A DNA stretch of 64,000 nt from Chlamydiota bacterium (GTDB taxonomy: Bacteria; Chlamydiota; Chlamydiia; Chlamydiales; Rhabdochlamydiaceae). Positions 1,585 through 56,366 of the stretch are shown here, in pieces. Location of the stretch: positions 174 through 64,173 of the forward strand of contig QIGB01000011.1 of the NCBI GenBank assembly GCA_003228815.1, written 5' to 3'. The notes beneath the pieces are model-generated. The model worked only from the letters and a program-made list of their open reading frames with translations, made no database searches and was not told the DNA's origin. How positions within the stretch are numbered: position 1 is the first letter of the stretch; each line of letters begins with the position of its first letter. The translations under genes and the position numbers were made by a program.

Positions 1585-1748
1585 TATACTCAAACAAAAT
1601 GAAAAATTGGTTTTTGACCGTATCGGTTTACCTTTCGCTTTTTCATCTACTCCTCGCTCCGTGTCCATGAACACTGCAGCTCGTCATATCTGAGAAAGCG
1701 AAGGAACCTCTTTGTCAAATTCCCAATTTTTCATTTTGTTTGAGTATA
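1585..1748. repeat. MITE-like hairpin element, family A copy 1 (164 bp)
   Basis: Perfect 26-bp terminal inverted repeat TATACTCAAACAAAATGAAAAATTGG (1585-1610 vs 1723-1748). About 80 percent identical by eye to the copy at 27004-27166. The right arm encodes the last 5 codons and the stop of waaA. Confidence 0.85.
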
Positions 1749-2921
1749 GCTCAAGAGATAAGGTTGTAAAGCTTCCCAGGTCGCTTCAAGTGGCTGAGAA
1801 CCACGAGCTGCAAGATCGGAGGCATTTTGCGCAAGGATTAAGGCTTTAGGGATTGCCTTTGAAAGGTCCTGATGAGGAGTTTGGATGCCTGCTTGGGCAT
1901 TGAGGACGAGATCCACAAGTTCTTTTTGAGTCTCCATATGGGGACCAAAAAGGACGGGAATTCCTGCTTGGATCGGTTCAAATATGTTGTGCCCACCCGT
2001 GCCGGGAAGGAAACTCCCCCCGACGATGGCAAGATCACTAAGTTGATAACAAATGTGGAGAATGCCCATTTGATCCACTAGTTGAACATTGGGATAGGGA
2101 TGTTTTTCGAGGAATTTTTTCACTTGGGCGAAACGCTCAGGTCGACGAGGGGCAAGGAGTACTTTGGCATCCTGAATATGAGGGAGAAGTATCTCTTCCT
2201 CCCCTTCATGCGTCGAACCGATGGTGATCACTCGATCTGTTGGAAGCAGGCCAAAATGATCTCGCCAAGTTTGCATCTCTTTTGGGGTGAGTTTTTGAGA
2301 AGGTATGGAGAGTTTGAGATTCCCCGTAATGGTGATTTTTTCTGGAGGTATATAGAGGGATTGAAAACGGGTTGCATATTCGGTGTTTTGGATACATAGT
2401 CGATCGATTTGAGCAAAGATACGTTTGGAAAATGATGGAAATTTGGCAAAACGAGCAGAAGAACGGGCGGAGATTTTTCCATTGAGAAGAACGACTTTGC
2501 CTTTTTGCTTTTTTACCTCGGAAATCAGGTTCAGCCAAAAATCACTCTCTGAAAGAAGTAAGAGATCGGGTTTGAGGCGAAAAACAAGTCGTCGCATGAT
2601 CCACGACAAATCGAGAGGGAGAAAGAAGTAGCCATCTGCATTTGGAAGGCTCCGTTTGGCTTCATTGTGTCCTGTTTTAGTGGTTGATGAGAGGAAGAAT
2701 GCGGCCGTTGGGTATTTCGTGCGAAGCCTTTCATAAATGGGGATCATCGCTTTTGTCTCCCCTACTGAGACCATGTGGATCCAAATGGAGGGAGTTTTGC
2801 TGGAAGGCTTGGGAAGTTGAAAGCCAAATCGTTGCAGACGGCTTCCCCGGTACTTTTTTTGGATGAGCCATTTGGGAATACAGTAAATAGCTCCAAGTAG
2901 AAGGCAAAAATCGTACAACAT
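1731..2921 (-). CDS. waaA: 3-deoxy-D-manno-octulosonic acid (Kdo) transferase
   Basis: 396-aa ORF. Has the HMVSVGE motif and C-terminal glycosyltransferase blocks (GGSF..GGHN..EP) typical of KdtA/WaaA/GseA. Its ATG directly follows the leuS stop (TAAATG). Confidence 0.85.
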   Translation of the reverse strand: MLYDFCLLLGAIYCIPKWLIQKKYRGSRLQRFGFQLPKPSSKTPSIWIHMVSVGETKAMIPIYERLRTKYPTAAFFLSSTTKTGHNEAKRSLPNADGYFFLPLDLSWIMRRLVFRLKPDLLLLSESDFWLNLISEVKKQKGKVVLLNGKISARSSARFAKFPSFSKRIFAQIDRLCIQNTEYATRFQSLYIPPEKITITGNLKLSIPSQKLTPKEMQTWRDHFGLLPTDRVITIGSTHEGEEEILLPHIQDAKVLLAPRRPERFAQVKKFLEKHPYPNVQLVDQMGILHICYQLSDLAIVGGSFLPGTGGHNIFEPIQAGIPVLFGPHMETQKELVDLVLNAQAGIQTPHQDLSKAIPKALILAQNASDLAARGSQPLEATWEALQPYLLSYTQTK

Positions 2922-5672: not shown

Positions 5673-7058
5673 ATGGCTGAAATTGCAACATTTCGAAAAA
5701 ACAAGATTGAATTAACGGAATATGACTGCTCTAAAGACATTCATAACCGTGTTTTGATGGCAAAATTTTCTCCATTAGATGTCGAAATTCTCGAGGAAAT
5801 CCTCTATAGCTCTCTCCGCATACCTGTTTCTGTCCTTCAGAAGAATCTCGATATTGAGGAAACAGCCCTTTCCCCTACTTTGGATCGCCTCACGAAAACG
5901 GGGCTATTTAAGGTAGTCGCCGATCACGTTCTCGTCGATAAAGAAATGCGCAAATACTACGAATTGCAGATTCTTAAATTCGAAGAAGATTTTAAACCGG
6001 GAATGGAATATCTGCAGGGATTGCTTCGCAAAGTCCCTATTCACGTTCTCCCCAATTGGTATTCTATTTCTCGTACTTCCAATAACATCTTTGAATCCAT
6101 CGTCGAAAAACATCTGGCAACACCCCTGATTTTTCAGCGATATCTGATGGAACTGAATCTTTCAGATCCAGTGCAAAAAGGGATACTCAACGCCGTCTAT
6201 CAATCCCCCAATTATGAAGTCGATGCTGCGGATATGATCAAAAAGTTTGATCTTTCGCAAGCAGAGTTTGAAGAGCATATGCTCTTTCTCGAATTTAGTT
6301 TCGCCTGTTGCATCAAATTTGCGAGAGAAAAGAAAAGTTTTAAGCAGATCATTTCTCCTTTTCATGAATGGCAAGAATATCTCTGCCATGTACGCGACAC
6401 AGAGCCTGCTTCGATCATCGATGAAGAAAAAGTCCAGCGGGTGAAAGAGAATGATTTTGCCCTCGTTGAAGAAATGAGCGCCATCCTTGAGCTTGCGAAA
6501 AATAAACCCATTACGAAAGCCATTATCCCCTCTTTGCTAAAACAATATCCAGAATTTGATGAAGAAGAATTTTCCTACTACGTTGAGAAGCTTTGCGCCC
6601 TCAATTTAGCCGATCAAGAAAGACAGCAAACAGTGTGTACAAGTGACTCGCTCGCATGGCTCAAAATGGATTTGACCGATCGCGCACTTTACCTCTATCG
6701 CCACCCCCTAAATTACCTCGAAGATCCCGATCTTCCTGAAGAACTTTGCCAACACCGGATGCTGCGAGAAGCAGAAAAATGTTTGAGTCGCACTGTCAAT
6801 ACGGGTTGGGTTTTTCTTGATGACTTTATCAAAGCCATTTTCATTCCTCTGAAAGAAGAACATATGATCAAATTGGTTCGCCAAGGCAGAACATGGAAAT
6901 ATCAGCTTCCAGAGTATTCTGAAAAGGAAATCTCCTTTTTTAAAGCTGTGATTCAAAATTGGCTTTTTGAGTTGGGTATCACAGCTCTTGGCACGGTAGC
7001 GGGGCGCGAATGTTTTACCCTAACCCCCTTTGGCCAGGGACTGTTTGGCGATGACTAA
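5673..7058 (+). CDS. Conserved hypothetical protein (461 aa), possibly with winged-helix-like repeats
   Basis: Long uninterrupted ORF with protein-like composition, and its stop overlaps the smpB start by 8 nt. I do not recognise a family. Confidence 0.6.
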   Translation: MAEIATFRKNKIELTEYDCSKDIHNRVLMAKFSPLDVEILEEILYSSLRIPVSVLQKNLDIEETALSPTLDRLTKTGLFKVVADHVLVDKEMRKYYELQILKFEEDFKPGMEYLQGLLRKVPIHVLPNWYSISRTSNNIFESIVEKHLATPLIFQRYLMELNLSDPVQKGILNAVYQSPNYEVDAADMIKKFDLSQAEFEEHMLFLEFSFACCIKFAREKKSFKQIISPFHEWQEYLCHVRDTEPASIIDEEKVQRVKENDFALVEEMSAILELAKNKPITKAIIPSLLKQYPEFDEEEFSYYVEKLCALNLADQERQQTVCTSDSLAWLKMDLTDRALYLYRHPLNYLEDPDLPEELCQHRMLREAEKCLSRTVNTGWVFLDDFIKAIFIPLKEEHMIKLVRQGRTWKYQLPEYSEKEISFFKAVIQNWLFELGITALGTVAGRECFTLTPFGQGLFGDD

Positions 7059-7509: not shown

Positions 7510-7532
7510 CTGCTACCTTATCCCCGCATAAG

Positions 7533-7632
7533 AAGTTCTTTTAAGAATGCAGTTTTGGGGATGAGCGGCGAATGCAACTCCAAAGAGTTGGATGAGCCGA
7601 GAAGCTCCAAAGATGCGCTCTTAAAAGAACTT
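7533..7632. repeat. Short palindromic element (about 100 bp) downstream of smpB
   Basis: 14-bp inverted repeat AAGTTCTTTTAAGA (7533-7546) vs TCTTAAAAGAACTT (7619-7632). The interior resembles the interiors of the longer hairpin elements. Confidence 0.4.
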
Positions 7633-7888
7633 ATTGGAGGGCTAAATGGTTTTTTATGAGAGTTTGGTTCATCTATGGAAAGGACAAAATATTTTGATTT
7701 TTCACAATAGCTTCAGGCAATCTTTCACATCTTTTCCTTCCCAGATATCTACTGATATCTGCCCAGAAAAATTTGCAAAATCTTACCTAAATCTAATATG
7801 GAAAATCAAAAGATAAGGTGGCAGTCACGGGTTTAAGTAAAATCTCTAGAAAGATTCAAAAAGAATGCTCTCAGATCATGAAACGTCA

Positions 7889-9067: not shown

Positions 9068-9094
9068 GCTTACCATTTCTTCATGGGAGCATGT

Positions 9095-17507: not shown

Positions 17508-18026
17508 ATGGAAAACAAAAAAATTAGTCGAAAAATAAATTTTCGCTTTGCATTTGCTAAATCATCTCAATGGTCGCTGATACATCAATGGTTGGAACAA
17601 AAACACATCAAAGACTGGCTCCACGGAGAAGGACTTCAAAACACTCTGAATGGGTTGGAAAAATTTTTTCATGGGACATCCAACACTACCTACTGGATCA
17701 GCTACGATAAAGAGATCCCTTTTGCCTTTCTGATTACTTCTCCAGAAGGAGATGATGCAATTACCTTGGATTTGTTTATCTGCGATCTAAATTATTTAGG
17801 AAAAGGACTCGCAGTGCCGATGATTCAGGAATTTTTGATCAACCAGTTTCCGAATGTAAAAAAGGTTATGATAGATCCTGAAGCGAGCAATGAGCGAGCT
17901 ATCCATGTATACCAGAAAGTTGGGTTTAAGATTGTTGGGGAGTTCAATGCCAGCTGGCATCCCGTGCCCCACTACCAAATGGAGCTTTATATGAAAGACC
18001 TTTTGGACGCAAAAAAACGAGAATAG
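17508..18026 (+). CDS. GNAT-family N-acetyltransferase, AAC(6')-like
   Basis: GKGLAVPMIQEFL...IDPEASNERAIHVYQKVGFKIVGEF is the acetyl-CoA binding core and resembles the AAC(6')-Ib TDPSPSNLRAIRCYEKAGF block. Confidence 0.7.
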   Translation: MENKKISRKINFRFAFAKSSQWSLIHQWLEQKHIKDWLHGEGLQNTLNGLEKFFHGTSNTTYWISYDKEIPFAFLITSPEGDDAITLDLFICDLNYLGKGLAVPMIQEFLINQFPNVKKVMIDPEASNERAIHVYQKVGFKIVGEFNASWHPVPHYQMELYMKDLLDAKKRE

Positions 18027-18133
18027 TAACTCAACTTGTCCATCGATGGTGAACAAATAAGTCCATGCGCTTTAAGCCAAGACATTCGTCGTGAACGTGA
18101 TCAATTGAGAAAAAAGGCAAAATATGGGTCTAA

Positions 18134-18292
18134 GAGTCTGTCTGTGAATTGCTTTTACCAGAGGGAACAAAGATTTTTTCCTTGGAAGATTTTCTGGAAA
18201 CCGGAGCGAGCTTTGATAAGCTCGTTGAAGAAAGGCTTCCAAGGGAAAAAGATTGTTTCCAATCCTGGTGAAATGAATTCACAGACAGACTC
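18134..18292. repeat. MITE-like hairpin element (159 bp), related to family B
   Basis: Perfect 17-bp TIR GAGTCTGTCTGTGAATT (18134-18150 vs 18276-18292), flanked by TAA on both sides. Has a nested internal palindrome (TTTTTCCTTGGAAG / CTTCCAAGGGAAAAA). Confidence 0.8.
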
Positions 18293-18328
18293 TAAAGCCA
18301 AGAGCCTTGACCAACCCGATGGAGGAAG

Positions 18329-18622
18329 ATGATTACTGTTATCGAAACCATAAAGGCCACCCAAGGAAAGGTAGATGAATTGAAAAAAGCTTTACTTAAG
18401 CTTGTTCCTATCAGTCGAAATGCTAAAGGATGTTTGCAATATAATCTTCTTGAGCCAGTTGACCAAGGTGATGAATTCCTTGTTCTCATGCGCTGGGAAA
18501 AACTGACCGATCTTCGAAGGCATGAGTCTTCAGATGATATTGCGGAGTTTGTGCGGAAATATGAAAAAATTCTTTATGACGAGGTAAAGGTAACTGAGTG
18601 GAAGGAGCTGCCTGTTCGATAA
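18329..18622 (+). CDS. Antibiotic biosynthesis monooxygenase (ABM) domain protein, YgiN-like
   Basis: 97 aa. The pattern ITVIETIKA..G..DELKKAL..LV..SRNAKGCLQYNL....D...F.V...W is typical of the ABM ferredoxin-like fold. Confidence 0.65.
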   Translation: MITVIETIKATQGKVDELKKALLKLVPISRNAKGCLQYNLLEPVDQGDEFLVLMRWEKLTDLRRHESSDDIAEFVRKYEKILYDEVKVTEWKELPVR

Positions 18623-18659
18623 TCATAGCGCCTATTTATTGAATTTGCAAAACAACCTC

Positions 18660-20240: not shown

Positions 20241-20309
20241 ACCCCCAAAATGACATAGTCAAGATTTTTTGAACATCTTGTTTTAAAAGTCACTAGAAAA
20301 TACACTATG

Positions 20310-20466
20310 AGACCGTTGCGAAACTGCTTTCGCCGGAGGGATTTTGAATTTTTTGGATTAATCGTCCTTGGAATGCAGAGCAAGCTCATAGGGAGCTTGT
20401 GTAGCATGAAAGGTCGATTTAGCCGAAAAAGGCTCCAAGACGGAGGAATGAGTCACGCAACGGTCT
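20310..20466. repeat. MITE-like hairpin element (157 bp) flanked by a 7-bp direct repeat
   Basis: TIR AGACCGTTGCG (20310-20320) vs CGCAACGGTCT (20456-20466). CACTATG sits immediately outside both ends (20303-20309 and 20467-20473). The element ends 14 nt before tRNA-Pro. Confidence 0.7.
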
Positions 20467-20480
20467 CACTATGTACTCAT

Positions 20481-24603: not shown

Positions 24604-24749
24604 CTTTATTCTTTATTAATATAATATACTAAAAGCTCCATTATACTATATTAATGTATTTAGAAACAATGGCTTAAAATTAGTTGTTTACAACCCAAGA
24701 TGATTTCCCTCTTTTTTTCTATGAAAAAGCGAATAGTAATTTGAGTTGT

Positions 24750-27003: not shown

Positions 27004-27166
27004 TATACCGAAACAAAATAAAAAATTGGTTTTTGACTGCATCGGTGTTTCTACTGCTTTGCCATCTACTCCTCGCTCCGTGTCTATGACCACTGCAGCT
27101 CGCACATATGAAAAACCAGTAGAACCTCTTTGTCAAATTCCTAATTTTTCATTTTGTTTCGGTATA
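27004..27166. repeat. MITE-like hairpin element, family A copy 2 (163 bp)
   Basis: TIR TATACCGAAACAAAATAAAAAATTGG (27004-27029) vs an imperfect complement at 27140-27166. The interior shares CATCTACTCCTCGCTCCGTGTC...CACTGCAGCTCG...GAACCTCTTTGTCAAATTC with copy 1. Confidence 0.85.
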
Positions 27167-30023: not shown

Positions 30024-30785
30024 ATGCAGCTTGAGATTTCAGAAGCTGGCAAACGTGCCGCAGAACAATTAGAACCACTGCAAGCCAAAGAATTTGGCGG
30101 ATGCAACGAACCTCACAATGATGTTGGTGTGACAATTTTAAAAATATTAACCATCATCGGAGGGATCTTCTTTGCGATGTTATCTGCAACAAGCCTTCCT
30201 CCTGAGATGGCTTTCATTTGCATCACTCTAATTGCAATCACTGTCGCTACACTCGTTACTGGAGCAGAAAAAATCGTTGCGATTTTCCCAAGAGGGATTT
30301 GGGTTTGGGGAAGTGGCGAAAGGCATCCTCCAGTTGTTATCCGTGATTCCCGTCCGCCCCCTTCTCGCTGGACATGGTATAATCCCGGCACCTGGGGAGG
30401 AAGAACTTCTTCAGGAGGTAGCGGGCATTCCGTCTATACAGGTAGAGGTGGGGACAGCGGAGGACATTCTGTTCACCCAAGTTCAGGCGGATCAGGGAGT
30501 AGCCCTAGCTCAGGCGGAGGTAATAGCGCCGTAGGCAGTGGGCATTCTAGCTCTAGAGGAAACGCCGCCACAACCGGAGGATATAGCGCCGTAGGCGGAG
30601 GACATAGCGCCTCTCCTATCGTTGGAGGCACTCCTGGTAATGTGGCTTCAGGCGGGGGACATCACACCTCTCCTATCGTTGGAGGCACTCCTGGTAATGT
30701 TAGCGTCGGCAGTGGACTACACGATCGGAGCCCTACGACACCTACAGGAAATGTTGTACCAGGCAGTGGCCGTAGCAGAAAATGA
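30024..30785 (+). CDS. Membrane protein with a bilobed hydrophobic domain and a Gly/Ser/His-rich repetitive tail (Inc-like candidate)
   Basis: Two adjacent hydrophobic stretches (ILKILTIIGGIFFAMLSATSL-PPE-MAFICITLIAITVATLVTGA), then a low-complexity tail with repeated SPIVGGTPGNV units. Confidence 0.6.
   Translation: MQLEISEAGKRAAEQLEPLQAKEFGGCNEPHNDVGVTILKILTIIGGIFFAMLSATSLPPEMAFICITLIAITVATLVTGAEKIVAIFPRGIWVWGSGERHPPVVIRDSRPPPSRWTWYNPGTWGGRTSSGGSGHSVYTGRGGDSGGHSVHPSSGGSGSSPSSGGGNSAVGSGHSSSRGNAATTGGYSAVGGGHSASPIVGGTPGNVASGGGHHTSPIVGGTPGNVSVGSGLHDRSPTTPTGNVVPGSGRSRK
30598..30711 (+). repeat. Two tandem 57-bp units inside the 30024-30785 CDS
   Basis: The 34-bp core CCTCTCCTATCGTTGGAGGCACTCCTGGTAATGT is identical at 30610-30643 and 30667-30700. 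Confidence 0.9.
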
Positions 30786-36343: not shown

Positions 36344-38167
36344 ATGTGTGGGATTTTTGGACATATCGGCAAGGCTGATTCCATAAAAAAATGCTTGGCC
36401 GGACTCAAATTTCTCGAATATCGTGGATACGATTCGGCAGGAATTGCAGGCATTTTTGAAGACGAGCTCCTTTGTTTCAAAGAAAAGGGGAAACTCGGAG
36501 CTCTCAAACAAATTCTTGCTGATCAGTCTATCCCCTTCACAACAACGATCGGACATACAAGGTGGGCAACACATGGCGTTGCCAATGCTCGCAATGCACA
36601 TCCCCACTTTGATCAAAACAAAAATCTCGCTCTTGTTCACAATGGGATCCTCGAAAATTATCAAGATCTTCGCAAAATGCTAGAAAACAAAGGGGTCTTA
36701 TTTTCAACGGACACCGATACCGAAGTGATTGCCCAATTAATTGCATATTTATATAAAGGAGATCTAGTTAGGGCAGTCCGATCAGCTATTTCTTTGATGA
36801 AAGGTTTTTGGGCACTTGCCATCATCCACAAGAAACATCCCGATCATATCATTGTCACCCGTCTTGAAAACCCCTTAGTCGTTGGGCTCTCCAAAAAAAC
36901 CAAAGATGCCTACATCTCTTCAGACCCTTATGCTTTTCAAGAAAAAAAACTCGACCTCTTTTATCTCAAAAATCATGAAATTGGTGTCGTTTCAAATGAC
37001 TCTATCCAAATATTCGATCACAATGCGCGCAGCATAAAGCCAGCTCCAGAGCTCATAGAACTTCCTGAGATCGAAATTGACAAGGGAGGATTTCCCCACT
37101 TCATGCTGAAAGAAATTTTTGAACAGCCAAAAGCAATACAAAGCTCGATCCATAATCGTTTTGTGCTGGAGGAAGGGGACGCAGATTTTGAATTTTTTCA
37201 TCCAGCGCCAGGGCAATTCACAAATGTCCTCCTACTCGGCTGCGGCACCTCATGGCACGCTGGTTGTATTGCCGCTCTTCAATTTGAAGCTTTTGCAAAA
37301 CTCCCTGCTTCTGCAGAAATTGCCTCGGAATATCGGTATAAACAAACACAGATCGATCCCAAAACCCTTGTGATTGCCTTATCTCAATCCGGAGAGACAT
37401 TTGATACAATTGCTGCTGTCCGCAAGGCTCGAGAAGGCGGAGCAAAAGTTCTTGCGATTTGCAATATTCCCGGATCTACCTTGATGAGAGAAGCTGATTT
37501 TTGTATATCGCTCCGCGCTGGCCCAGAAATCAGCGTTTGTTCCACCAAAACCTACAATTGTCAACTGGCAGTTTTGGCCCTCCTCGCACTCAAAATGGGC
37601 AGGCTTGGTCCAATGACCCATGAAGTTGGTGGAACTTTTTTAAAAGAAATCATCCATCTTCCCAAAGTTGTGGAAGAAATACTCGATCAAGAAGAAACCC
37701 TGATCCACTTAGCACAAAAATATGCAGGGTTTTCCAACTGCTTTTTCATTGGGAGACAATATATGTTTCCCACAAGCCTAGAGGCAGCGCTCAAACTCAA
37801 AGAAATTAGCTACCAAAATGCATTTGCCTATCCCGCAGGAGAACTGAAACACGGTCCGATCGCTCTCATCGATCCAAACTGTCTCGTCATCGGAATGTGT
37901 GGGAATGCTGCCACCCACAACAAAATCCTCAGCAACTTGATGGAAGTTAAAGCGCGGAGCGGAAGGATTTTAGCCTTGGCACCATCTGATGCTCCTGGGA
38001 TCGCAGACATAGCTGATGATGTCCTTTGGATTCCCCCCATTGCCGATTCCCTTGCTTCTATCCCCTATTCCGTTGCAACACAACTCTTTGCTTATTATGT
38101 CGCAAAGGAGCGGGGATGCGATATCGATCAGCCCCGCAATCTCGCAAAGACGGTCACCGTGGAGTGA
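36344..38167 (+). CDS. glmS: Glutamine--fructose-6-phosphate aminotransferase
   Basis: MCGIFG N-terminal nucleophile, two SIS domains, and the C-terminal DQPRNLAKTVTVE ending. Confidence 0.95.
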   Translation: MCGIFGHIGKADSIKKCLAGLKFLEYRGYDSAGIAGIFEDELLCFKEKGKLGALKQILADQSIPFTTTIGHTRWATHGVANARNAHPHFDQNKNLALVHNGILENYQDLRKMLENKGVLFSTDTDTEVIAQLIAYLYKGDLVRAVRSAISLMKGFWALAIIHKKHPDHIIVTRLENPLVVGLSKKTKDAYISSDPYAFQEKKLDLFYLKNHEIGVVSNDSIQIFDHNARSIKPAPELIELPEIEIDKGGFPHFMLKEIFEQPKAIQSSIHNRFVLEEGDADFEFFHPAPGQFTNVLLLGCGTSWHAGCIAALQFEAFAKLPASAEIASEYRYKQTQIDPKTLVIALSQSGETFDTIAAVRKAREGGAKVLAICNIPGSTLMREADFCISLRAGPEISVCSTKTYNCQLAVLALLALKMGRLGPMTHEVGGTFLKEIIHLPKVVEEILDQEETLIHLAQKYAGFSNCFFIGRQYMFPTSLEAALKLKEISYQNAFAYPAGELKHGPIALIDPNCLVIGMCGNAATHNKILSNLMEVKARSGRILALAPSDAPGIADIADDVLWIPPIADSLASIPYSVATQLFAYYVAKERGCDIDQPRNLAKTVTVE

Positions 38168-38174
38168 TTCGCTT

Positions 38175-38201
38175 CCCAATCCTTCATTTTGTTTCGGTAT
38201 A
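38175..38201. repeat. Solo family-A terminal repeat immediately after the glmS stop
   Basis: CCCAATCCTTCATTTTGTTTCGGTATA closely matches the right arm of family A (CCCAATTTTTCATTTTGTTTGAGTATA). I found no partner left arm nearby. Confidence 0.6.
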
Positions 38202-39677: not shown

Positions 39678-40241
39678 TTGGAAAACTCAAAGAGGCAAAA
39701 ACAGCTCGAAGAAAAGGCAAATCTGGAGACAAGAGAGATCTATAAAGGAAAAATCTTCTCAGTACGAAAGGATCGCTTACAATTTGACTCTCATTCTCTT
39801 CATGAATGGGATATCATTGAACATCGCGGAGGTGTGGCAATCATTCCTGTAAGCAAAAATGGAACCCTTTTTCTGATCCAACAGTGGCGACGTGCCATTG
39901 GAAAAATCATCTATGAGATTCCTGCAGGAAAATTAGATGAAGGGGAAACCCCCTTGCTCTGCGCGCAGAAAGAACTCCAAGAAGAAATTGGTTATCGTGC
40001 AAAAGAAATGATCCCTTTTGGAGGGCTCTATACAACACCAGGCTTCTGCACAGAATACATCCATTTTTTTATTGCAAAAGACTTAGAAGAAAATTCACTT
40101 AGCAAAGATATTCATGAGGCAATTGATGTCGTTGAAGTCTCTTTAAACGATGCATTAAACCTCATCGATTCCGAAGAAATCACTGATGCAAAAACGATCG
40201 CAGGACTTTTGCGATATCAAAGGTGGATCCATCATGCGTAA
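39678..40241 (+). CDS. nudF: NUDIX hydrolase, ADP-ribose pyrophosphatase-like (TTG start)
   Basis: Nudix box GKLDEGETPLLCAQKELQEEIGY. The YKGKIF...D....G.....E..EH.GGVAI layout is typical of NudF. Starts 3 nt after the cyclase stop. Confidence 0.75.
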   Translation: MENSKRQKQLEEKANLETREIYKGKIFSVRKDRLQFDSHSLHEWDIIEHRGGVAIIPVSKNGTLFLIQQWRRAIGKIIYEIPAGKLDEGETPLLCAQKELQEEIGYRAKEMIPFGGLYTTPGFCTEYIHFFIAKDLEENSLSKDIHEAIDVVEVSLNDALNLIDSEEITDAKTIAGLLRYQRWIHHA

Positions 40242-40899
40242 ATTTCTTTTCACAATTTTGTTTTTGGGCGTTTTTGCCTTTTTCCTCCCTCAGCTCGCTT
40301 CTTGGGGATGGGCAAAAAAACAAGTAGAAGCCCATCTAGCGAAACAGCTCGGAGGAGAAGTGCAAATTGAAAACCTCTCACTCAGTTGGTGGAAAACACA
40401 AAAGTGTCAAAAAGTCACCTGGACAGATACCCACAATGGCATTGTCCTTTTTGCCGATCAGGTATCTGTTCTCGCCGACCTTACCGATTGCATCCGTTTC
40501 AAAGAAAAACCTCTAGATGTCCTGGTAGAAGGGGCTACAATGAAATCAAAAGCCAATTTCCGCTTCATCAAAAAGCTCCGAAAAAAAGACCTGAACCTAC
40601 ATTTCTCTCCGATTGAAGCAAAAATTGAAAATGGAATCATCGCATTCAATCAGATAGAAATTGAAATCAACGAATCGATGAAAGTCGGGGCATGGGGAGA
40701 AATCGACTTTGCAAAACAACAGATGGATCTCACCCTTGGGCTTCCTCCCCAAACCATAAAAAAAATGTTCAAGGAGGCAAAAAACCTTCCCGATGATTTC
40801 CTTTTAGAGATCCCCATTTCCACAAAGCTCAATAGCAAAGCGCTAGAAAAAACCCTGATCGGCTTTTTTCTGAAAAATTATACCACTCTCAAAAAGTAA
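40234..40899 (+). CDS. Membrane-anchored hypothetical protein, mini AsmA-like by eye
   Basis: Signal/anchor MRKFLFTILFLGVFAFFLP, then LGGEVQIENLSLSWW resembling AsmA-family N-termini. The ATG overlaps the nudF stop. Confidence 0.5.
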   Translation: MRKFLFTILFLGVFAFFLPQLASWGWAKKQVEAHLAKQLGGEVQIENLSLSWWKTQKCQKVTWTDTHNGIVLFADQVSVLADLTDCIRFKEKPLDVLVEGATMKSKANFRFIKKLRKKDLNLHFSPIEAKIENGIIAFNQIEIEINESMKVGAWGEIDFAKQQMDLTLGLPPQTIKKMFKEAKNLPDDFLLEIPISTKLNSKALEKTLIGFFLKNYTTLKK

Positions 40900-40902
40900 A
40901 TC

Positions 40903-41085
40903 CCGCCCTTCAGGGCTTGTCATTACCCACAATTTTCTTCGCAGGGGAATGCGAGGCAAGAAGATGTGCAGATTTTAAGGCGAGGGAATAGTCGAATGCC
41001 TATTGCCAAGGAGCAAAACTGTACAGATTGAAGCCGTAGCACCCTGAAAGAAAAGATGTGGGTAATGACAAGCCCTTCAGGGCGG
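40903..41085. repeat. MITE-like hairpin element, family C (183 bp)
   Basis: 29-bp TIR CCGCCCTTCAGGGCTTGTCATTACCCACA (40903-40931) vs 41057-41085, matching 27/29 with the inner 20 bp perfect. Lies between two convergent gene ends. Confidence 0.8.
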
Positions 41086-41110
41086 AGTTCTCGATTTTTC
41101 GCGAATGGTA

Positions 41111-42169
41111 TTATGCTATAGTCACCTCGGGGCATAGATAAACGTTTTGGATGGCGCCGAGCAATTCAACCCCTTCTTTCAAAGGACGCTGGAATGCCTT
41201 CCTACCTGAAATGAGACCCATTCCACCGGCACGTTTGTTGATCACAGCGGTTTCCACAGCCTGCTGCAGGTCATTTTCTCCGGAAGCACCACCAGAATTG
41301 ATGAGTCCCACACGGCCCATGTAATCATTAATCACCTGATAACGGGTCAAATCAATGGGATGCTCGGTGCAAAGTTCGGTATACATTGCTTCGGTCTGCT
41401 TCCCAAAGTTGAGCATTTTAAAGCCGCCGTTGTTTTCTGGGAGTTTTTGCTTCACAATGTCAGCTTCTATCGTCGCTCCGAGGTGATTGCCCTGACCAGT
41501 CAGATCCGCTGCAACGTGATAATCGACTTTGGGGGTTTTGAACTCAGAATTGCGCAAATAACACCACAACACCGTCGTCATCCCCAATTCATGGGCCATT
41601 TGAAACGCCTTGCTGACCTCAACAATTTGTTTGCGGCTTTCCTCAGAACCAAAATAGATCGTCGCACCTACCGCCACACAGCCCATTTCATAGGCCTGTT
41701 TCATGGAAGCAAACATGATTTGATCATGAATATTGGGATAGCGAAGAAGTTCATTATGGTTGAACTTCAAAAGAAACGGAATTTTATGAGCATATTTACG
41801 AGCCATTATGCCGAGCACACCCAGAGTAGTGGCCACAGCATTGCATCCCCCCTCGATGGCGAGTTTGATAATATTTTCCGGGTCAAAATAGTCGGGATTT
41901 TTGGAAAAAGAAGCCCCTGCAGTGTGTTCAATCCCCTGATCAACCGGTAAAATTGAGAGATATCCTGTTCCCCCTAACCGTCCATGCCCAAGAAGCGTTT
42001 GGAGGCTACGAAGGACTCGAATATTACGATCAGAAGGACCAAAAATCCGATCGACCCAATCGGGACCTGGAATATGCAGTTTATCTTTGTGAATCGTTTT
42101 GCATTCATGCCCGAGCAAAAATTCGGCTTTGTCTTCTAGCATCTTTTGAATTTCGCTATATGAAACCAT
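41111..42169 (-). CDS. fbaB: Class I fructose-bisphosphate aldolase (DhnA/FbaB type)
   Basis: The [11 protein letters not shown]...GPDWVDRIF...[16 protein letters not shown] block matches E. coli FbaB/DhnA-type aldolases. Start at ATG 42169 with GGGAGA upstream. Confidence 0.85.
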
Positions 42170-42229: not shown

Positions 42230-42392
42230 GAGGGTGTATGCGAATTCATTCCCCCCGGTATAGGAGCTCTCTTTTTCCCTAGGAGAAGCTCTTCAAACTC
42301 CACAAACTCGATTTGAGTTTGCTCCGTTTGAAGAGCTTCTCCTAGGCAAAAATATTAGCTCCCCCCGAGGAAAGCAATTCGCATACACCCTC
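42230..42392. repeat. MITE-like hairpin element, family B copy 1 (163 bp)
   Basis: Perfect 17-bp TIR GAGGGTGTATGCGAATT (42230-42246 vs 42376-42392), flanked by TAA on both sides. Has a perfect nested 21-bp palindrome (42278-42298 vs 42326-42346). The right edge overlaps the rimO stop codon. Confidence 0.85.
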
Positions 42393-50286: not shown

Positions 50287-50439
50287 ACCCAAGTTGCTAC
50301 CCCATATTTCCTCTATGAAAGCTGCACTACCCATCTACTTCGCTTCGCTCGTCGCCAAGGTGTTCACAACTTGGCTTCCTCTCAAATCTTGTAGCTGGCC
50401 AGTTCGCTTTTTCATTGAGAAAAAGAGGGTAACTTGGGT
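50287..50439. repeat. Degenerate hairpin element (about 153 bp)
   Basis: Weak TIR ACCCAAGTT (50287-50295) vs AACTTGGGT (50431-50439). The interior motif CCATCTACTTCGCTTCGCTCGTC resembles the family A interior (TCATCTACTCCTCGCTCCGTGTC). Confidence 0.4.
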
Positions 50440-50502: not shown

Positions 50503-51027
50503 ATGAAAATAAAAAAAATATTCTGTTTAGCAATTTTACTTTCATCCTCTTTTTTTCAATTACATGGAGAAGAAATTCCCATCACCCTAGAAAAAGAAAA
50601 AGTAGATATCCATGATCGCTACGGGTATTTCACATATGGTTTTGGACTTCCTGGAATATTTGGTTTAAATCTCGGGATGCGAAATCAACACAATCATCAT
50701 GGCTTTGAATACGGGGTAGGAGTCGTCCCCTTGATTTTTGTCTATGAGATACATGCCTTTACTAGTTATTTGTATTATCCCTCCCCTTCGCTTGAATCCC
50801 AATTCTATTTTGGCTTAGGTCTTAGAGGAGGTTATGCAAATTTAACGAATAATAAGTGGGAAAAAGGGGAAGGTTATGCTGCTCCGGGAATGATTTTTGG
50901 AAAAAGCTATCACACAAAAGAGGAAAGTTCCCGCTTTTTCCAAGTTGCTTTCTCGCCTGCAGCTTTTGCAAAAAAGAAAGTTCGATTTGCCCCTTCAATC
51001 AACGTCTCATATGGATATTGTTTTTAA
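50503..51027 (+). CDS. Small outer-membrane beta-barrel-like protein (174 aa)
   Basis: Signal peptide MKIKKIFCLAILLSSSFFQLHG, alternating Gly/aromatic-rich strands, and a C-terminal aromatic residue (..SYGYCF). Confidence 0.6.
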   Translation: MKIKKIFCLAILLSSSFFQLHGEEIPITLEKEKVDIHDRYGYFTYGFGLPGIFGLNLGMRNQHNHHGFEYGVGVVPLIFVYEIHAFTSYLYYPSPSLESQFYFGLGLRGGYANLTNNKWEKGEGYAAPGMIFGKSYHTKEESSRFFQVAFSPAAFAKKKVRFAPSINVSYGYCF

Positions 51028-51191
51028 GAGGGTATATACGAATTCATTCCACCGGCATGGGAGCTCTCTTTTTCCCTAGGCGAAGCTCTTCAAACTCCAC
51101 AAACTCGATTTGAGTTTGCTCCGTTTTCCAGAGCATTCTCCTAGGAAAAAATATTAGCTCCTCCCGATGAAAGCAATTCGCATACACCCTC
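51028..51191. repeat. MITE-like hairpin element, family B copy 2 (164 bp)
   Basis: TIR GAGGGTATATACGAATT vs AATTCGCATACACCCTC (2 mismatches), flanked by TAA on both sides. The left TAA is the stop of the 50503 CDS, and the right edge overlaps the stop of the 51191-53074 CDS. Collinear with copy 1. Confidence 0.85.
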
Positions 51192-53074: not shown

Positions 53075-53106
53075 TGTATTAGATTAATTGGAATTTGGGG
53101 ACAAGA

Positions 53107-53283
53107 TTATTTTCGCTGGCGATATTTGGGGCAATCTTTGTTTAAACAAAATTTTTGCGATGCTGGATAAGCTAGTCCACAAGCTGAACACCACCACATC
53201 TCAGCCGAATTGACTCTTGGCTGAGCAGGACCTGCAAAAACAGGTGTAGACACGAATGCGATGAGAAGAAAAATGATCATCAT
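53107..53283 (-). CDS. Small secreted Cys-rich (zinc-ribbon-like) protein, 58 aa
   Basis: Perfect AGGAGG 7 nt upstream of ATG 53283. Signal peptide MMIIFLLIAFVSTPVFA-GP, then CSAC...13 aa...CLNKDC. The 137-aa track ORF is an upstream extension. Confidence 0.6.
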   Translation of the reverse strand: MMIIFLLIAFVSTPVFAGPAQPRVNSAEMWWCSACGLAYPASQKFCLNKDCPKYRQRK

Positions 53284-53335
53284 CAATAACCTCCTAAGGC
53301 AACCTACAATTGTTGAAAACCTTATTAAGTTTCTT

Positions 53336-53484
53336 ATACCAATAAATAAATGTACAAAAGCACGAGAGATTTTTGAGAAAAAAATGCATTTGGAAATCGC
53401 AGCTAACTTTTGTAAGTTTGCAAGATAGAAAATGTATTTTTGGCCAAAAAGATCCGTAGATTTTGTACATTTATTTATCGGTAT
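53336..53484. repeat. MITE-like hairpin element, family F (149 bp)
   Basis: TIR ATACCAATAAATAAATGTACAAAA (53336-53359) vs 53461-53484, matching 23/24. It shares the TATACCAAT terminus with the element at 56206. Confidence 0.8.
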
Positions 53485-53637
53485 TGGTATTATCCCTTTG
53501 GGAGAATCTTGAAAAGACAATTTTCATGAATCCAATTTTAAAGCTAATTTTATCTTTTTGATGCTGAGATTTTACCACTTCAGAATGTGATTGTCCATGT
53601 AAAAAAGCCTCTTGGACACCTTTGTAGAGGACAAAAA

Positions 53638-55437
53638 TCAAACAGTCACATCTGCGCCGCAGCGGAAGCCATAGGTCCCGTTCATGACGCCAGGATTGTT
53701 GCGATGTCGATGGGAGCAGCGCATATCTTCTTTGAGGCTTTTCCAACAGCCTCCACGCAAGACTCGATATACACCTTGTGCAGGTCCTTTAGGATTTTCG
53801 GGCTCTTGCATAGAAGTCTCATAATAGTGGTACCCATACCAATCCAGACACCACTCATAAACATTACCGCTCAAATCATAGAGACCGTATACATTAGTAG
53901 GATAGCTCATCACAGCAGTGGTATCAGAGCTAAAGAAGTTTGCCTCTGAGCGCTCTAAATCATCGCCTGTTGGATATTGCACTCCTTCTCGACCTCCATA
54001 GGCAGCAATTTCCCATTCAGCTTCGGTAGGAAGACGTTTTCCAACCCATTTGGCATAGGCCATGGCGCCATACCAACTCACACCAACGACAGGATGTTTG
54101 CTATAACCCGATTCAATGACAAGTTTTCCACTATCTTTTCGAATGCGAGAATCTCTAAGGCGAATGATGTCATTGTTATTGGCATCTTTTTCTCCTCCCA
54201 TTGCCATCAAAAATCGGACAAATTGCTCATTTGTGACAGGATGAACATCGATAGCAAAAGATTTAAGATGTACCGCATGCCGCGGCATTTCATCACGCGC
54301 TCCATTATTACTTCCCCGAAGAAAAGTTGCCCCTTCAACGACAATCATTTCAGTCAAAAGAGGTTTAATCTCTTTCAACTCGGTCTTTTTAGGAGTGTAA
54401 ATGGCAACAGTTTTGTCCGTTTGAAAGACAGCCGCAGGATCCGGTTCATATTCGGGCCTTTTGATTTCTTGAGGCTGGATTTTCGGACGAAGACTTCTCT
54501 CTCCAGGCATCATTTCTTCCAGAATTTCGGATAAAAGTAGCGGCCTTTTCTCGGGATCAACATTGAGGCAGTGTTTGATGATTGCATCCCAATCTCTTTC
54601 TAATTCCAGGTTGCATTCAGAAGGCATGGGAAAAAATCCTTCTGGAAACTGTCCCACAAGCAGTCGATACAGCATAATGCCAAAAGAATAGATATCGGCT
54701 TTGACATCTGCATCTCGATTTGATCCGATTTGTCCTTTCTGCTCAGGGGCTAAGAAAGCGTAATATTGATAGAAAGAATCATGCAACATTTCAACATTTC
54801 CTTCCCCTTCTCCATACATCTCAAGAGACATGTCCCCCTCTTCAAAACCCGCTGCAAAGGCCATCATTTCCCATAGAATGCGATAACTGCGAGAGAGAAC
54901 AGCTCCCATTCCCACAATCCTTGAAAGCCCAAAATCACTCACCATGACTTCGAGCGCACCTTCCGTTTCTCGCAACAAGATATTATTCAATTTCAATCCT
55001 CGATGAGCCAAAGGTTCATCATGGATATTTTTTTGATGAGCATAATCAAGCGCTGCTGCGACCTGCTGTGCAATTTGATAAATCTCTTCTTCTGGAGGGC
55101 TTTTTTTCTTTTCGAGATAGTGGGCTAAATTCATTGTCTCCCCCTTGGTATTCAGAAGACAATCCGATACAAGAAAGAACCGCTTCCCATCGGAGGAAAC
55201 ATTGTGCAATTTGACAATATTTGGATGATCAAGTGTCCCTAAAAGGGCTACCTCTTTTTCAAAACGCTCGATAAAATTTTCGTGCTCTGAAAGCTCCCCA
55301 GGAAGAACCTTTAAAACATGATGCTTCTTGAGAAAACGATGCTTGGCAAGATAAACCTTCCCCATCATTCCCTGACCAATCTCTTTCAGCACGTCATAAT
55401 CCCCAAGAATTTGAGTCTGAATTCCTTGTGTTTTCAT
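53638..55437 (-). CDS. pkn1: Ser/Thr protein kinase fused to a C-terminal FGE-sulfatase (formylglycine-generating enzyme-like) domain, Pkn1-type
   Basis: Kinase motifs GQGMMGKVY, HVLKVL (Lys), HRGLKLNNILL, VSDFGLS, LAPE. C-terminal blocks HPVVGVSWYGAMAYAKWVGKRLPTEAEWE, RVLRGGCWKS and GFRC are typical of the FGE/SUMF1 fold. Confidence 0.85.
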   Translation of the reverse strand: MKTQGIQTQILGDYDVLKEIGQGMMGKVYLAKHRFLKKHHVLKVLPGELSEHENFIERFEKEVALLGTLDHPNIVKLHNVSSDGKRFFLVSDCLLNTKGETMNLAHYLEKKKSPPEEEIYQIAQQVAAALDYAHQKNIHDEPLAHRGLKLNNILLRETEGALEVMVSDFGLSRIVGMGAVLSRSYRILWEMMAFAAGFEEGDMSLEMYGEGEGNVEMLHDSFYQYYAFLAPEQKGQIGSNRDADVKADIYSFGIMLYRLLVGQFPEGFFPMPSECNLELERDWDAIIKHCLNVDPEKRPLLLSEILEEMMPGERSLRPKIQPQEIKRPEYEPDPAAVFQTDKTVAIYTPKKTELKEIKPLLTEMIVVEGATFLRGSNNGARDEMPRHAVHLKSFAIDVHPVTNEQFVRFLMAMGGEKDANNNDIIRLRDSRIRKDSGKLVIESGYSKHPVVGVSWYGAMAYAKWVGKRLPTEAEWEIAAYGGREGVQYPTGDDLERSEANFFSSDTTAVMSYPTNVYGLYDLSGNVYEWCLDWYGYHYYETSMQEPENPKGPAQGVYRVLRGGCWKSLKEDMRCSHRHRNNPGVMNGTYGFRCGADVTV

Positions 55438-55503
55438 GATCTATCTCCTTCTAAAATTGAATACTTTGATGGTGAACTTTTCATGGTTTTTTCTCAAGAG
55501 CAT

Positions 55504-55512
55504 TGGTATAAT
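55504..55512 (+). promoter_or_regulatory. Extended -10 promoter element for the 55541 CDS
   Basis: TGGTATAAT (TGnTATAAT consensus) 29 nt upstream of the ATG, with an AGGAGG Shine-Dalgarno between them. Confidence 0.4.
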
Positions 55513-55540
55513 AGATCTCCTATCTACCAGGAGGTAGAAA

Positions 55541-56233
55541 ATGGCATGGAAACGCTCTTCTGAAAAGCTCATCGAAAGGTTTACTGAATTTCTCAAAAAT
55601 TTTCCCGATGGGGAATTGCGCAAGACGTTTGGATATCCTTGCTGCTTTGTAAAAGGAAATATGTGTACAGGCCTGCATGAAGAAAACTGGATCGTAAGAC
55701 TTTCTGAAGAAGATCGCATGGAATTGATGAAAATCCATGGAGCCAAGCCCTTTGAACCGATGAAAGGAAGGATCATGCGCGAATATCTCGCGCTTCCCCC
55801 AGCTATTCAAAAAGAGACGAATAGAAATGACTTGGCACTTATCTGCCATTCCAAAGGAGGACTTGTCGGTTCTTATTTTGCGACCCACTTAGCAGAAACA
55901 AATACACGCATTACGGATGTGATCACCATTGGATCTCCCTTAGCCGGAACGCCTCTCGCCACTTTAGGCCCAGGATACGATGCCCACGAAATGAGAACTG
56001 ACTCCAAGTTTCATCAAGAGTTGCGTAAAAAAATGAAAGAGCGTCAAGAAATTCGATTCTCGCATATTGCTTCTGCGGTCGATGATATTGTCCCCCTATC
56101 TTCTGCTCTAGGGAAAAATCCGTCTCGGCAATTAGTATTGAACGATATGGGACATGTGGGCCTTCTCTTTTCTTCACGCGTTGCCAATCAGATTTGTCGC
56201 TGGTTATACCAATCCCACGAAATAAAGTCATAA
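55541..56233 (+). CDS. Chimeric ORF: TfoX_N-like domain fused to the C-terminal two-thirds of an alpha/beta hydrolase (lipase-like)
   Basis: Residues approx 1-95 resemble TfoX N-terminal domains (RKTFGYPCCFVKGNMCTGLHEENWIVRLSEEDR...). The rest carries CHSKGG (nucleophile elbow), DDIVP and GHVGLL, but no upstream oxyanion-hole strands. The last 9 codons lie in a repeat arm. Confidence 0.55.
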   Translation: MAWKRSSEKLIERFTEFLKNFPDGELRKTFGYPCCFVKGNMCTGLHEENWIVRLSEEDRMELMKIHGAKPFEPMKGRIMREYLALPPAIQKETNRNDLALICHSKGGLVGSYFATHLAETNTRITDVITIGSPLAGTPLATLGPGYDAHEMRTDSKFHQELRKKMKERQEIRFSHIASAVDDIVPLSSALGKNPSRQLVLNDMGHVGLLFSSRVANQICRWLYQSHEIKS

Positions 56234-56366
56234 AGAGCACAATAGATTTTGCCGAAATTCGAGCCTGGAGCTCGAAGGCAACTTCAAGAAGTTGTCGAGA
56301 GCGAAGGCGAAGAATTGCAGGCAAAAGATGTCTGCAATTTATGACTTTATTTCGTGGGATTGGTAT
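56206..56366. repeat. MITE-like hairpin element, family D (161 bp)
   Basis: Perfect 29-bp TIR ATACCAATCCCACGAAATAAAGTCATAAA (56206-56234 vs 56338-56366). The left arm encodes the C-terminus and stop of the 55541 CDS. Confidence 0.85.

Follow-up and report, generated by a model that had tools for sequence, protein, structure and literature searches.

The window (the whole stretch of 64,000 nucleotides analysed here) carries tightly packed chlamydial genes, among them waaA, smpB, dnaN, recF, pgi, a tRNA-Pro gene, glmS and deoC, and in the gaps between them lie hairpin elements of 106-230 nt, together with two solo arms and a 1246-bp insert (Table 1). The elements make up about one third of the intergenic DNA of the window and occur in all types of gap. 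The elements listed in an earlier note, written from the letters alone, were all recovered, with coordinates that agree exactly or to a few bases, including a solo arm of family A (reported near 38175-38201 and now located at 38173-38201). The nested 21-bp palindrome described there (42278-42298 / 42326-42346) is perfect. That list lacked the candidate w3, outer C, the solo w2-type arm and the 1246-bp insert.

Table 1. Hairpin elements and related pieces in the window; z is the folding-energy score against dinucleotide shuffles.
Feature	Position	Strand	Description	z
A1	1585..1748	+	TA-TAC...GTA-TA; 26-nt perfect terminal repeat	-12.0
w1	7530..7635	.	106-nt hairpin, 20 nt downstream of smpB; 51-nt arms, 75% complementary	-9.7
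w3	7689..7814	.	candidate weak AT-rich 126-nt hairpin, smpB/dnaN; 61-nt arms, 72% complementary	-5.0
1246-bp insert	17414..18659	+	B-type ends GAGGGTGTTTATAAATTGC and, reverse complement, GAGGTTGTTTTGCAAATTC; flanks TCA and TTA	
B-like	18134..18292	-	nested in 1246-bp insert; flanks TAA/TAA; 29-nt terminal repeat	-12.5
E	20309..20467	-	distant B-superfamily member, GAGACC...GGTCTC	-8.7
solo w2-type arm	24688..24740	-	83% identity to w2 right arm	
A2	27004..27166	+	divergent promoter gap, small DUF6496-like gene / thioredoxin-reductase gene	-8.9
solo A right arm	38173..38201	+	between glmS and adenylate/guanylate cyclase gene; 90% identity to A right arm	
outer C	40881..41110	+	TACC...GGTA ends; flanks TTA at 40878-40880 and 41111-41113	-9.3 (whole C)
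inner C	40903..41085		different family from, and enclosed by, outer C	-11.2
B1	42230..42392	+	family B; flanks TAA/TAA	-16.1
w2	50287..50439	+	decayed; ACCCAAGTTGC... terminal repeats; divergent gap	-3.8
B2	51028..51191	+	family B; fills the whole gap between two convergent genes	-7.8
F	53336..53484	+	TACCAAT...; downstream of protein-kinase gene; 48-nt arms	-9.8
D	56205..56367	+	TACCAATCCC...; 24/24 terminal bases complementary; between convergent genes	-15.2

A detector based on sliding-window folding energy caught the G+C-rich elements and missed the AT-rich ones, and we therefore adopted detection by inverted repeats. This gave nine inverted-repeat loci in the window compared with 0-2 in ten block shuffles, and the same settings applied to 63.5 kb of syntenic sequence of three relatives yielded no inverted repeats of 22 nt or longer. 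The terminal inverted repeats have arms of 25-58 nt that are 74-100% complementary, with all 24 terminal bases paired in A1, in D and in a copy from L066. Folding energies lie between -50 and -95 kcal/mol (z = -7.8 to -16.1 against dinucleotide shuffles), w1 and w2 being the weaker candidates (Table 1).

All the elements fall below the ~300 bp that bounds MITEs, and the only reading frames within them, other than the final codons of adjacent genes, are those expected by chance. A domain scan of most, not all, of the window's ORFs found no transposase domain, in agreement with the earlier note. There was no match to the elements in Rfam, even at relaxed thresholds, and a literature search found no description of such elements in Chlamydiae, which bears out the view that they are not a described family. 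In 6 of 11 families the motif AGATTTT / AAAATCT is present at a distance of 35-45 nt from the element ends, an occurrence that was not significant after correction for 1222 k-mers. The sequences are not unique to these loci, as many copies are present at unrelated loci of other chlamydial assemblies, with about 25 for B and 2-4 each for A, E, w2 and inner C. No second copy of D, F, w1 or w3 was found in the DNA searched, and viral contigs scanned for the elements gave chance AT-rich matches only.

Presence or absence at orthologous sites could be read for five of the insertions. The site of A2 is cleanly empty in L019, which reads CTCCTTTTATTTCC where the window has CTCCTT-TA-element-TA-ATCCC, and at the solo A arm about 30 nt are absent in relatives. 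At C, deoC and its neighbour overlap by 31 nt in L014, L016 and L018 with nothing between them. The site of E is empty in L019 and L020, in both of which recF and pgi overlap tail-to-tail at the position of the 1246-bp insert. Such clean empty sites speak against the idea that the hairpins are immobile resident structures that arose where they now stand (as terminators, small-RNA genes or regulatory RNAs), as do the variable duplications identical on both sides of each copy, the occurrence of the same families at unrelated loci in other genomes, one copy lying inside a transposase ORF, and the lack of an Rfam match. An origin in place would suit the many elements that adjoin gene ends, the very strong folding energies and the single-copy state of w1 and w3. 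The evidence from A, B, C and E contradicts it; it applies at most to w1 and w3 and, as an account of the hairpins, is very improbable.

Placement relative to genes is where the earlier description has to be amended: its elements, coordinates and palindrome are real, but not its statement that nearly all lie at gene 3' ends, since a 3' end adjoins 11 of the 14 pieces, when the available gaps by themselves would predict 82%. Three pieces are in convergent, eight in same-direction and three in divergent (5'-5') gaps, the numbers of available gaps being 11, 34 and 10, respectively. Both E and A2 are in promoter regions, E lying between the pgi start and the tRNA-Pro gene within the tRNA promoter region. 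Several genes end inside elements, namely waaA, recF, a 237-aa ORF at 40186-40899 and a hydrolase-like ORF. The right arm of A1 contains the last six codons and the stop of waaA (1731-2921, minus strand), and D contains the last nine codons of the upstream hydrolase-like ORF.

Family B elements are 160-166 nt long, geneless and self-complementary from end to end, with a conserved loop region and the termini GAGGGTGTATGCGAATT. B1 and B2 are 91.5% identical, and nhmmer matched B-like to the B profile (E-value 2.3e-22) and placed element E in the B superfamily (E-value 4.5e-12); a second copy of E, at 84% identity, lies at the unrelated locus L051:1392-1557. The further unique full copies of B (about 25) are in metagenome contigs, mostly SDBS/SDBT/SDBU/SDBV records, in which about half of the matches to the B pattern are chance matches within ordinary genes. 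One match of chance appearance proved to be an informative IS5 element (L049). Among 185,579 species genomes searched, the terminus pattern occurs in two Chlamydiae MAGs only, at 11 loci. A full-text literature search for the terminus string gave nothing relevant.

In 20 of 21 unique copies, B is flanked on both sides by an identical T-N-A (TTA in 11, TAA in 8 and TGA in 1), with C-TNA-G as the preferred target and GAG as the start of the element. Two subfamilies can be distinguished, within which copies from different loci share 93-98% identity. Tandem copies in L003, L006 and L010 have one TTA in common, and deletion derivatives of 42-77 nt retain both ends and the duplication. One spacer holds, in two species, opposite-orientation copies of different B subfamilies. 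B1 and L016:194-358 were considered as one old orthologous insertion and rejected as such, being opposite in orientation relative to deoC and of different subfamilies, with L016:194-358 showing 73% identity to B1 and 98% to a K1000 copy. Taken together, the duplications, empty sites, copies at unrelated loci, deletion derivatives, and tandem and nested copies support the earlier proposal of several families of non-autonomous MITE-like elements.

The insertion sites of B-type elements frequently overlap a stop codon. In B1, the stop codon of a miaB-like gene consists of the TA of the duplication and the first G of the element, and in B2 the TAA duplication supplies the stop codons of both convergent genes. 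Overall, 24% of B sides are at stop codons against 2% of all T-N-A sites, an enrichment that is only about twofold relative to the 13% roughly estimated for tolerated sites (intergenic plus stop codons). We therefore treat it as target preference combined with purifying selection, not as homing. Insertions would survive solely where genes stay unbroken. The B targets TAA and TGA, and their complements, often overlap stop codons, and an insertion at a stop would remake it, either through a duplication that is itself TAA or TGA or through TA plus the element's first G, giving TAG. Elements may therefore sit flush against genes, even between formerly overlapping ones, and in some cases an element would take the place of a gene's final codons.

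The ends of B resemble those of IS5-family insertion sequences. A 1226-bp IS at L049:8483-9708 has the ends GAGGGTGTATACGAATTC and GAGGGTGTAGACGAAATC and a TCA/TCA duplication, and its product is an IS5-family transposase (DUF4096 + DDE_Tnp_1; NF033580, 183.7 bits). Ends of the form GAGGGTGTAGACAAAAT, with duplications of TA or TAA, are found in an ISPsy19-annotated IS and in a Massilia IS5. Over its terminal 17 nt, B agrees with the L049 IS at 16 of 17 positions and with the ISPsy19-annotated IS at about 13 of 17. The IS elements with B-matching ends come from other phyla (Pseudomonas, Massilia and the 69% G+C contig L049), and no IS5-type gene was found in about 0.6 Mb searched, much of it chlamydial, a sample biased towards MITE-bearing contigs and against assembly-breaking repeats. 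An IS3-type transposase adjoining a B end in L066 was rejected as a partner, being itself interrupted by an element of the TATAC type described below. For the IS1031 group of IS5, a three-nucleotide insertion site is described as typical (PMC2516522). Judged by its GAG start and its short A/T-rich T-N-A duplication, the B superfamily fits a derivative of the IS5 family. We infer that this first kind of element (B, B-like and E, with GAG...CTC termini and a duplicated 3-bp T-N-A target, the duplication being read from the B copies) was most likely moved in trans by an IS5-family DDE transposase that is encoded elsewhere in the genome or has been lost.

Both boundaries of the 1246-bp insert coincide exactly with the pgi stop codon TCA. 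Its B-type ends match at 13 of 19 positions and its flanking duplication at 2 of 3. It holds no transposase; its cargo genes, both assigned by Pfam, encode a GNAT acetyltransferase (17508-18026) and an ABM monooxygenase (18329-18622), with the B-like element between them. In these respects it resembles a mobile insertion cassette (MIC, for example MIC231 of Bacillus cereus), having IS-type inverted ends, a flanking TCA/TTA and passenger genes with no transposase. It differs from MICs in being a single instance, as no further one was found, and in that GNAT homologues elsewhere are in cassette arrays without B-type ends. Those arrays, which lie beside an integrase gene, were accordingly rejected as evidence for mobility of the unit, and because of them the insert is only a candidate mobile unit; an alternative is that several events in succession produced it. 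L010:2917-4462, considered as a second cargo-carrying element, turned out to be a full B copy and an independent 59-nt mini-copy flanking an HD-domain gene.

The elements A, D, F and outer C have the common termini TA-TAC(C)...GGTA-TA. Across these and the copies in L019, L053 and L066, the common features are confined to the outermost TATAC/GTATA and the general hairpin form. A1 and A2 are 83.5% identical, and A1 has a homologue at about L010:1323-1487 (74% identity over the blast match 1339-1467). The right TTA flank of outer C (41111-41113) is the stop codon of deoC, and an inner-C-like copy is present without the outer arms at L011:7706-7808. The TATAC-type element at L066:2829-2989 interrupts an IS3 transposase gene, in which removal of the element alone does not restore the OrfA frame and removal of the element together with one TA restores a 107-aa OrfA. 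This second kind of element would thus insert at TA, which is the habit of IS630/mariner-type, Correia and ERIC elements. Several copies have one imperfect flank, and since the TA is invariant it is not provable as a duplication and could belong to the element itself.

Between species, the subterminal arms of family A are completely different yet complementary, around a conserved core of 33 nt. Arm replacement of this sort is unusual for elements that are recognised via their terminal repeats and counts against a plain MITE reading. It could be accommodated if the TATAC-type elements were moved as single-stranded hairpins by a structure-recognising HUH/Y1 enzyme (IS200/IS605-type or REP-associated), with no DDE transposase reading the terminal repeats; the restriction of common sequence to TATAC/GTATA and the hairpin, and the invariant TA, would also suit such an enzyme. 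However, IS200/IS605 elements are without terminal inverted repeats and have short, subterminal hairpins, whereas complementarity here runs from end to end. Moreover, the left flanks of the TATAC-type copies are not one fixed tetranucleotide, and no HUH transposase was found in the scanned window ORFs. We regard this route as improbable.

The decayed element w2 is flanked by a direct repeat matching at 5 of 6 positions (TTTAGC / TTTATC). Its relatives are at L062:3779-3931, with flanks TTCTAA/TTCTAA, and in L077 and L053. We count it as a third kind of element, with a duplication of perhaps ~6 bp.

The arms of the B hairpins co-vary. The paired fraction in B is 94.9% of cells, and compensatory changes are seen in 20 of 50 pairs, values reached by none of 500 shuffles and far above slid-partner controls, in a set of sequences that are not independent of each other. 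The loop region and the asymmetric internal loops of B are invariant. These features, the family A core conserved between replaced and still-pairing arms, and the investment of one third of the intergenic DNA in a compact genome would all be explained if the hairpin of a mobile element were kept for the benefit of the host as RNA or DNA, for example by separating transcription units, stabilising 3' ends or offering a site for RNase III. On the other hand, there is no bias towards a type of gap. Sequence features lend no support to the terminator role suggested in the earlier note: no U-tract follows the long stems, as it would the G+C-rich stem of an intrinsic terminator, and within B copies the terminator consensus gave only two weak matches. 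Copies also decay (z = -7.8 for B2 against -16.1 for B1), solo arms and deletion derivatives exist, and close relatives have no such elements at the same sites. Selection on master copies for competence in transposition can also account for the co-variation. A host benefit, which would add to transposition and not replace it, is thus possible but on balance rather unlikely. We infer that compensatory change preserves the long stem in those lineages that are still transposing.

A further reading is that the elements are selected for structure and are not ordinary decaying MITEs, so that nothing counts but the outermost bases, a central core and arms that pair. Compensatory substitutions could then alter the arms freely, as in A and B, which would point to a folded single-strand or cruciform intermediate, or to a role of the hairpin at the level of the host between tightly packed genes, with insertion at stop codons as a safe harbour. 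We think this unlikely. If it were true, passenger genes such as those in the GNAT/ABM insert would offer a route of gene gain to an obligate intracellular lineage.

The co-varying arms, together with the intergenic position, abundance and palindromic form of the elements, also recall REP/REPIN-type repeats spread by a REP-associated tyrosine transposase (RAYT). REPs, as commonly understood and as described in part in PMC3733652, are units of 20-40 nt with a GTAG or CGTC head and no target duplication. The elements here differ in all three respects, being 150-230 nt long, starting with GAG or TATAC and having, in the B copies, T-N-A duplications that contradict such an origin for B. No domain of such a transposase was found in the scanned window ORFs, and this origin is extremely unlikely.

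Collectively, our data make it very probable that the hairpins are non-coding, non-autonomous miniature DNA transposons (MITEs) of at least three kinds that have spread through the intergenic DNA of one environmental Chlamydiae lineage, with B most likely moved by an IS5-type enzyme. MITEs are a known kind of element, here represented by families of which we found no description in Chlamydiae. Pathogenic chlamydiae are known to have highly stable genomes in which mobile DNA is almost absent, and the window shows a chlamydial lineage from the environment with a wide assortment of miniature transposons, which differs between close relatives. The elements rewrite the ends of genes, one lies in the promoter region of tRNA-Pro, and cargo genes are perhaps carried as well. 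The repeat families explain short MAG contigs that terminate in repeats, and they could serve as markers for typing strains or lineages. The B ends and an IS5-type transposase together provide a defined substrate for transposition tests in a group without genetic tools.

Among known systems, the closest to B are the IS5-family IS with GAGGGTGTA... ends (the ISPsy19-annotated IS, the Massilia IS5 and the L049 IS), which have the terminal 17 nt and the T-N-A or TA duplication in common with it; B differs from them in being geneless, 160-166 nt long and self-complementary throughout, with a conserved loop region. A TAA/TTA duplication is also the hallmark of the Tourist MITEs of eukaryotes, derived from IS5 or PIF/Harbinger. 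From IS200/IS605-derived palindrome-associated elements, B is set apart by its terminal repeats and variable duplications.

The analogy drawn earlier with the Correia elements of Neisseria and the ERIC/IRU elements of enterobacteria gains support from the evidence of mobility. Those are non-coding, intergenic hairpins of ~100-160 nt that insert at TA, have terminal inverted repeats and lack a known transposase, and the TATAC-type elements have their size, the TA and the TATA-start in common with them. Correia ends begin TATAG. We are aware of no sequence similarity to the Correia or ERIC consensus. The host phylum differs, and only the outermost 5-6 nt are common to the subfamilies here, whereas Correia and ERIC elements are conserved over their full length. 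Rickettsia palindromic elements (RPEs) are likewise palindromic, ~100-150 nt long, able to add codons to genes and proliferating in an obligate intracellular bacterium. RPEs typically lie in frame inside ORFs and have no clear duplications, in contrast to the elements described here, which are intergenic or at the very ends of genes and which in family B have clear duplications.

The hairpin elements listed in the earlier note were all recovered in the window. Their lengths are 106-230 nt, and their folds are hairpins that run almost from end to end, at -50 to -95 kcal/mol. Compared with dinucleotide shuffles, the main elements gave folding z scores of -7.8 to -16.1 and the weak candidate w1 gave -9.7, the weakest folders being w2 (-3.8) and w3 (-5.0), the latter a hairpin absent from the earlier list. 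The perfect 21-bp palindrome nested in B1 was also confirmed. Nine inverted-repeat loci were counted in the window versus 0-2 across ten block shuffles. The best control, a biological one, is the DNA of relatives: three loci of two relatives (L014; L018 and L020), 63.5 kb that is largely syntenic with the window, held no inverted repeats of at least 22 nt at the same settings. By the same count, loci of two other metagenome assemblies carry their own, different hairpins. The window sequence recurs in independent JGI and Logan assemblies, which rules out assembly artefacts as the source of the elements. Its genes (waaA-leuS, class I aldolase, oligopeptide transporter) point to an environmental Chlamydiae MAG, and the closest relatives are annotated as Chlamydiae or Simkaniaceae bacterium.

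Hairpin elements and associated features. Positions are in the window unless prefixed by L, which denotes other loci or contigs compared with it; the mark AG denotes AGATTTT and its complement AAAATCT.
Feature	Position	Family and ends	Remark
B1	42230-42392	B superfamily, GAG...CTC
B2	51028-51191	B superfamily
B-like	18134-18292	B superfamily	AG
E	20309-20467	B superfamily, more distant
A1	1585-1748	TATAC superfamily, TA|TAC(C)...GGTA|TA
A2	27004-27166	TATAC superfamily
Solo arm	38173-38201	TATAC superfamily
D	56205-56367	TATAC superfamily	AG
F	53336-53484	TATAC superfamily	AG
Outer C	40881-41110	TATAC superfamily	surrounds inner C
Inner C	40903-41085		AG
w1	7530-7635
w2	50287-50439	w2 family, ACCCAAGTTGC
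Solo arm	24688-24740	w2 family
w3	7689-7814
Short repeats resembling CCTCTTTTTTTCTATGAAAAAGCGAA	20583-20608, 24708-24733, 36467-36492, 50546-50571		at least the second is part of a w2-type arm remnant
Further AG carriers	L019:9481-9643, L066:2829-2989		second is TATAC-type
Additional hairpin, ~165 nt	L016:400-560		between a B copy and deoC; family not seen in the window
Tandem direct repeats (~125 nt) and very stable hairpin	L019:5650-5900 and 6160-6325	hairpin ends GAGGTTGTGAAAAAAT	relative's syntenic region; hairpin -99 kcal/mol per 180 nt
1246-bp insert	17414-18659	start GAGGGTGTTT, end AAACAACCTC	flanks TCA and TTA
GNAT acetyltransferase gene	17508-18026		in the 1246-bp insert
Tandem paralogues	9083-12751, 12835-16362		1222 and 1175 aa; 71-75% nucleotide identity
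ORF with 57-nt tandem duplication	30024-30785		duplication at 30593-30700 (51 nt aligned, 92% identical)
~4.3-kb segment	49278-53520		DHDPS-family gene, w2, 174-aa ORF, B2, amino-acid permease-Usp gene, F
IS5-family element, 1226 bp	L049:8483-9708	GAGGGTGTATACGAATTC and GAGGGTGTAGACGAAATC	duplication TCA/TCA

E joins the B superfamily by nhmmer (E = 4.5e-12), and further TATAC-superfamily copies lie in L010, L019, L053 and L066. Copies of the w2 family occur in L062, L077 and L053, and 6-bp direct repeats flank two members of the family. A shorter relative of inner C, lacking the outer arms, lies in L011, which makes inner C a separate, nested family. No second copy of w1 or w3, which are assigned to none of the families, was found among the DNA compared, and several families are known from one or two copies only. 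AGATTTT and its complement lie 35-45 nt from each end in six of 11 otherwise unrelated families; the motif loses significance once multiple testing is corrected for, and is suggestive of an internal module that the families may have in common.

MITEs with such properties are well known from other bacteria. The literature searched held no description of them in Chlamydiae and the elements had no Rfam match, in keeping with the earlier suggestion that they belong to no described family; their sequences are new families.

Their proposed MITE-like mobility is borne out by multi-locus copies, target duplications, empty sites and an interrupted gene. Of 185,579 species genomes only two, each a Chlamydiae MAG, have the B terminus pattern, at 11 loci, and a metagenome scan yielded about 25 more unique full copies. 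Within subfamilies the identity between copies at different loci is 93-98%, which points to recent spread. The flanking triplet is identical on both sides in 20 of 21 unique complete B copies (TTA 11, TAA 8, TGA 1), with a preferred target context of C-TNA-G; tandem copies have one TTA in common, and deletion derivatives of 42-77 nt retain both ends and the duplication. An empty site for C is seen in L014, L016 and L018, where deoC shares 31 nt with the gene converging on it; in the window a 230-nt element parts these genes, flanked by TTA, the right one being the deoC stop codon. Relative to L019 both A2 and E are clean insertions, E also relative to L020. The TATAC-type copy in L066 breaks orfA of an IS3-like element; removing the element and one TA (163 nt) gives an uninterrupted OrfA of 107 aa, whereas removing 161 nt does not. 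The spacer upstream of deoC holds B1 in the window and a B copy in L016, of opposite orientation and different subfamilies, and these are therefore independent insertions.

Larger gains were also seen. In L019 and L020 the tails of the recF and pgi genes overlap, and in the window exactly 1246 bp, carrying a GNAT gene, the B-like element and an ABM gene, is inserted at the pgi stop codon. This single instance looks like a mobile insertion cassette. Homologues of the GNAT protein share 70-83% amino-acid identity (78-82% at the nucleotide level in the three loci examined), some being annotated as Parachlamydiaceae, Rhabdochlamydia or Alphaproteobacteria; the one in L082 lies within an array of small same-direction genes adjoining a phage-integrase-type gene, an integron-like arrangement. 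The tandem paralogues, without a Pfam match, separate dnaN from recF, genes that lie side by side in the relative L020, implying a lineage-specific 7-kb gain and duplication. The ~4.3-kb segment separates a protein-kinase gene from an oligopeptide-transporter ATPase gene; in L018 the two genes converge directly on each other.

Across 23 aligned B copies 94.9% of cells are paired, and in 20 of 50 pairs both sides have changed (79 cells), although the copies are kin and such counts make independent events look more numerous than they are. None of 500 shuffles reached these values, and slid-partner controls gave 6-7 pairs. Hardly any variation is seen in the terminal 17 nt, the loop region or the asymmetric internal loops. 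A family A copy in L010 retains a 33-nt core and TTATAC/GTATA ends, with subterminal arms of wholly different sequence that are still complementary. Such covariation is what selection of master copies for the ability to fold would produce, and the fold may matter as DNA or as RNA.

Together the element pieces account for 1981 nt, or 3.1% of the window; of its 5.7 kb of intergenic DNA they make up about a third. The bias to gene 3' ends proposed in the earlier note is not real, as convergent, same-direction and divergent gaps are filled roughly according to their numbers. Insertion sites do often coincide with stop codons, and B elements show this best: 12 of 31 copies adjoin the stop codon of an ORF that has 80 or more codons. 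Counted by side the figure is 24%, versus 2% for T-N-A sites overall and roughly 13% for the tolerated ones. On B-type insertion a stop codon forms anew, being either TAA or TGA, or else TA joined to the first G in the element. The waaA and recF genes, a 237-aa ORF (40186-40899) and a hydrolase-like ORF end inside an element, and E lies between a -10-like box and tRNA-Pro. Classical terminator features are weak; that the elements help to form transcript ends is possible, if unsupported.

No transposase domain was present in the window ORFs scanned, as previously noted. Since no chlamydial IS5-type partner was found in the 0.6 Mb of sequence examined, the enzyme is one that we infer: judging from their termini, B elements would be moved by an IS5-family transposase. 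The complete IS in L049, a metagenome contig of 69% G+C, encodes such a transposase (DUF4096 and DDE_Tnp_1; NF033580 183.7 bits, cut-off 110). Its ends are nearly identical to those of the chlamydial B elements, indicating that the B-type terminus is conserved across very distant hosts. Plasmid-borne relatives of this IS, including one annotated as ISPsy19-family, have ends GAGGGTGTAGACAAAAT and flanks TA or TAA. By their match with these elements the B elements have IS5-type ends and an IS5-type duplication, and the IS1031 group is reported typically to use insertion sites of three nucleotides (PMC2516522).
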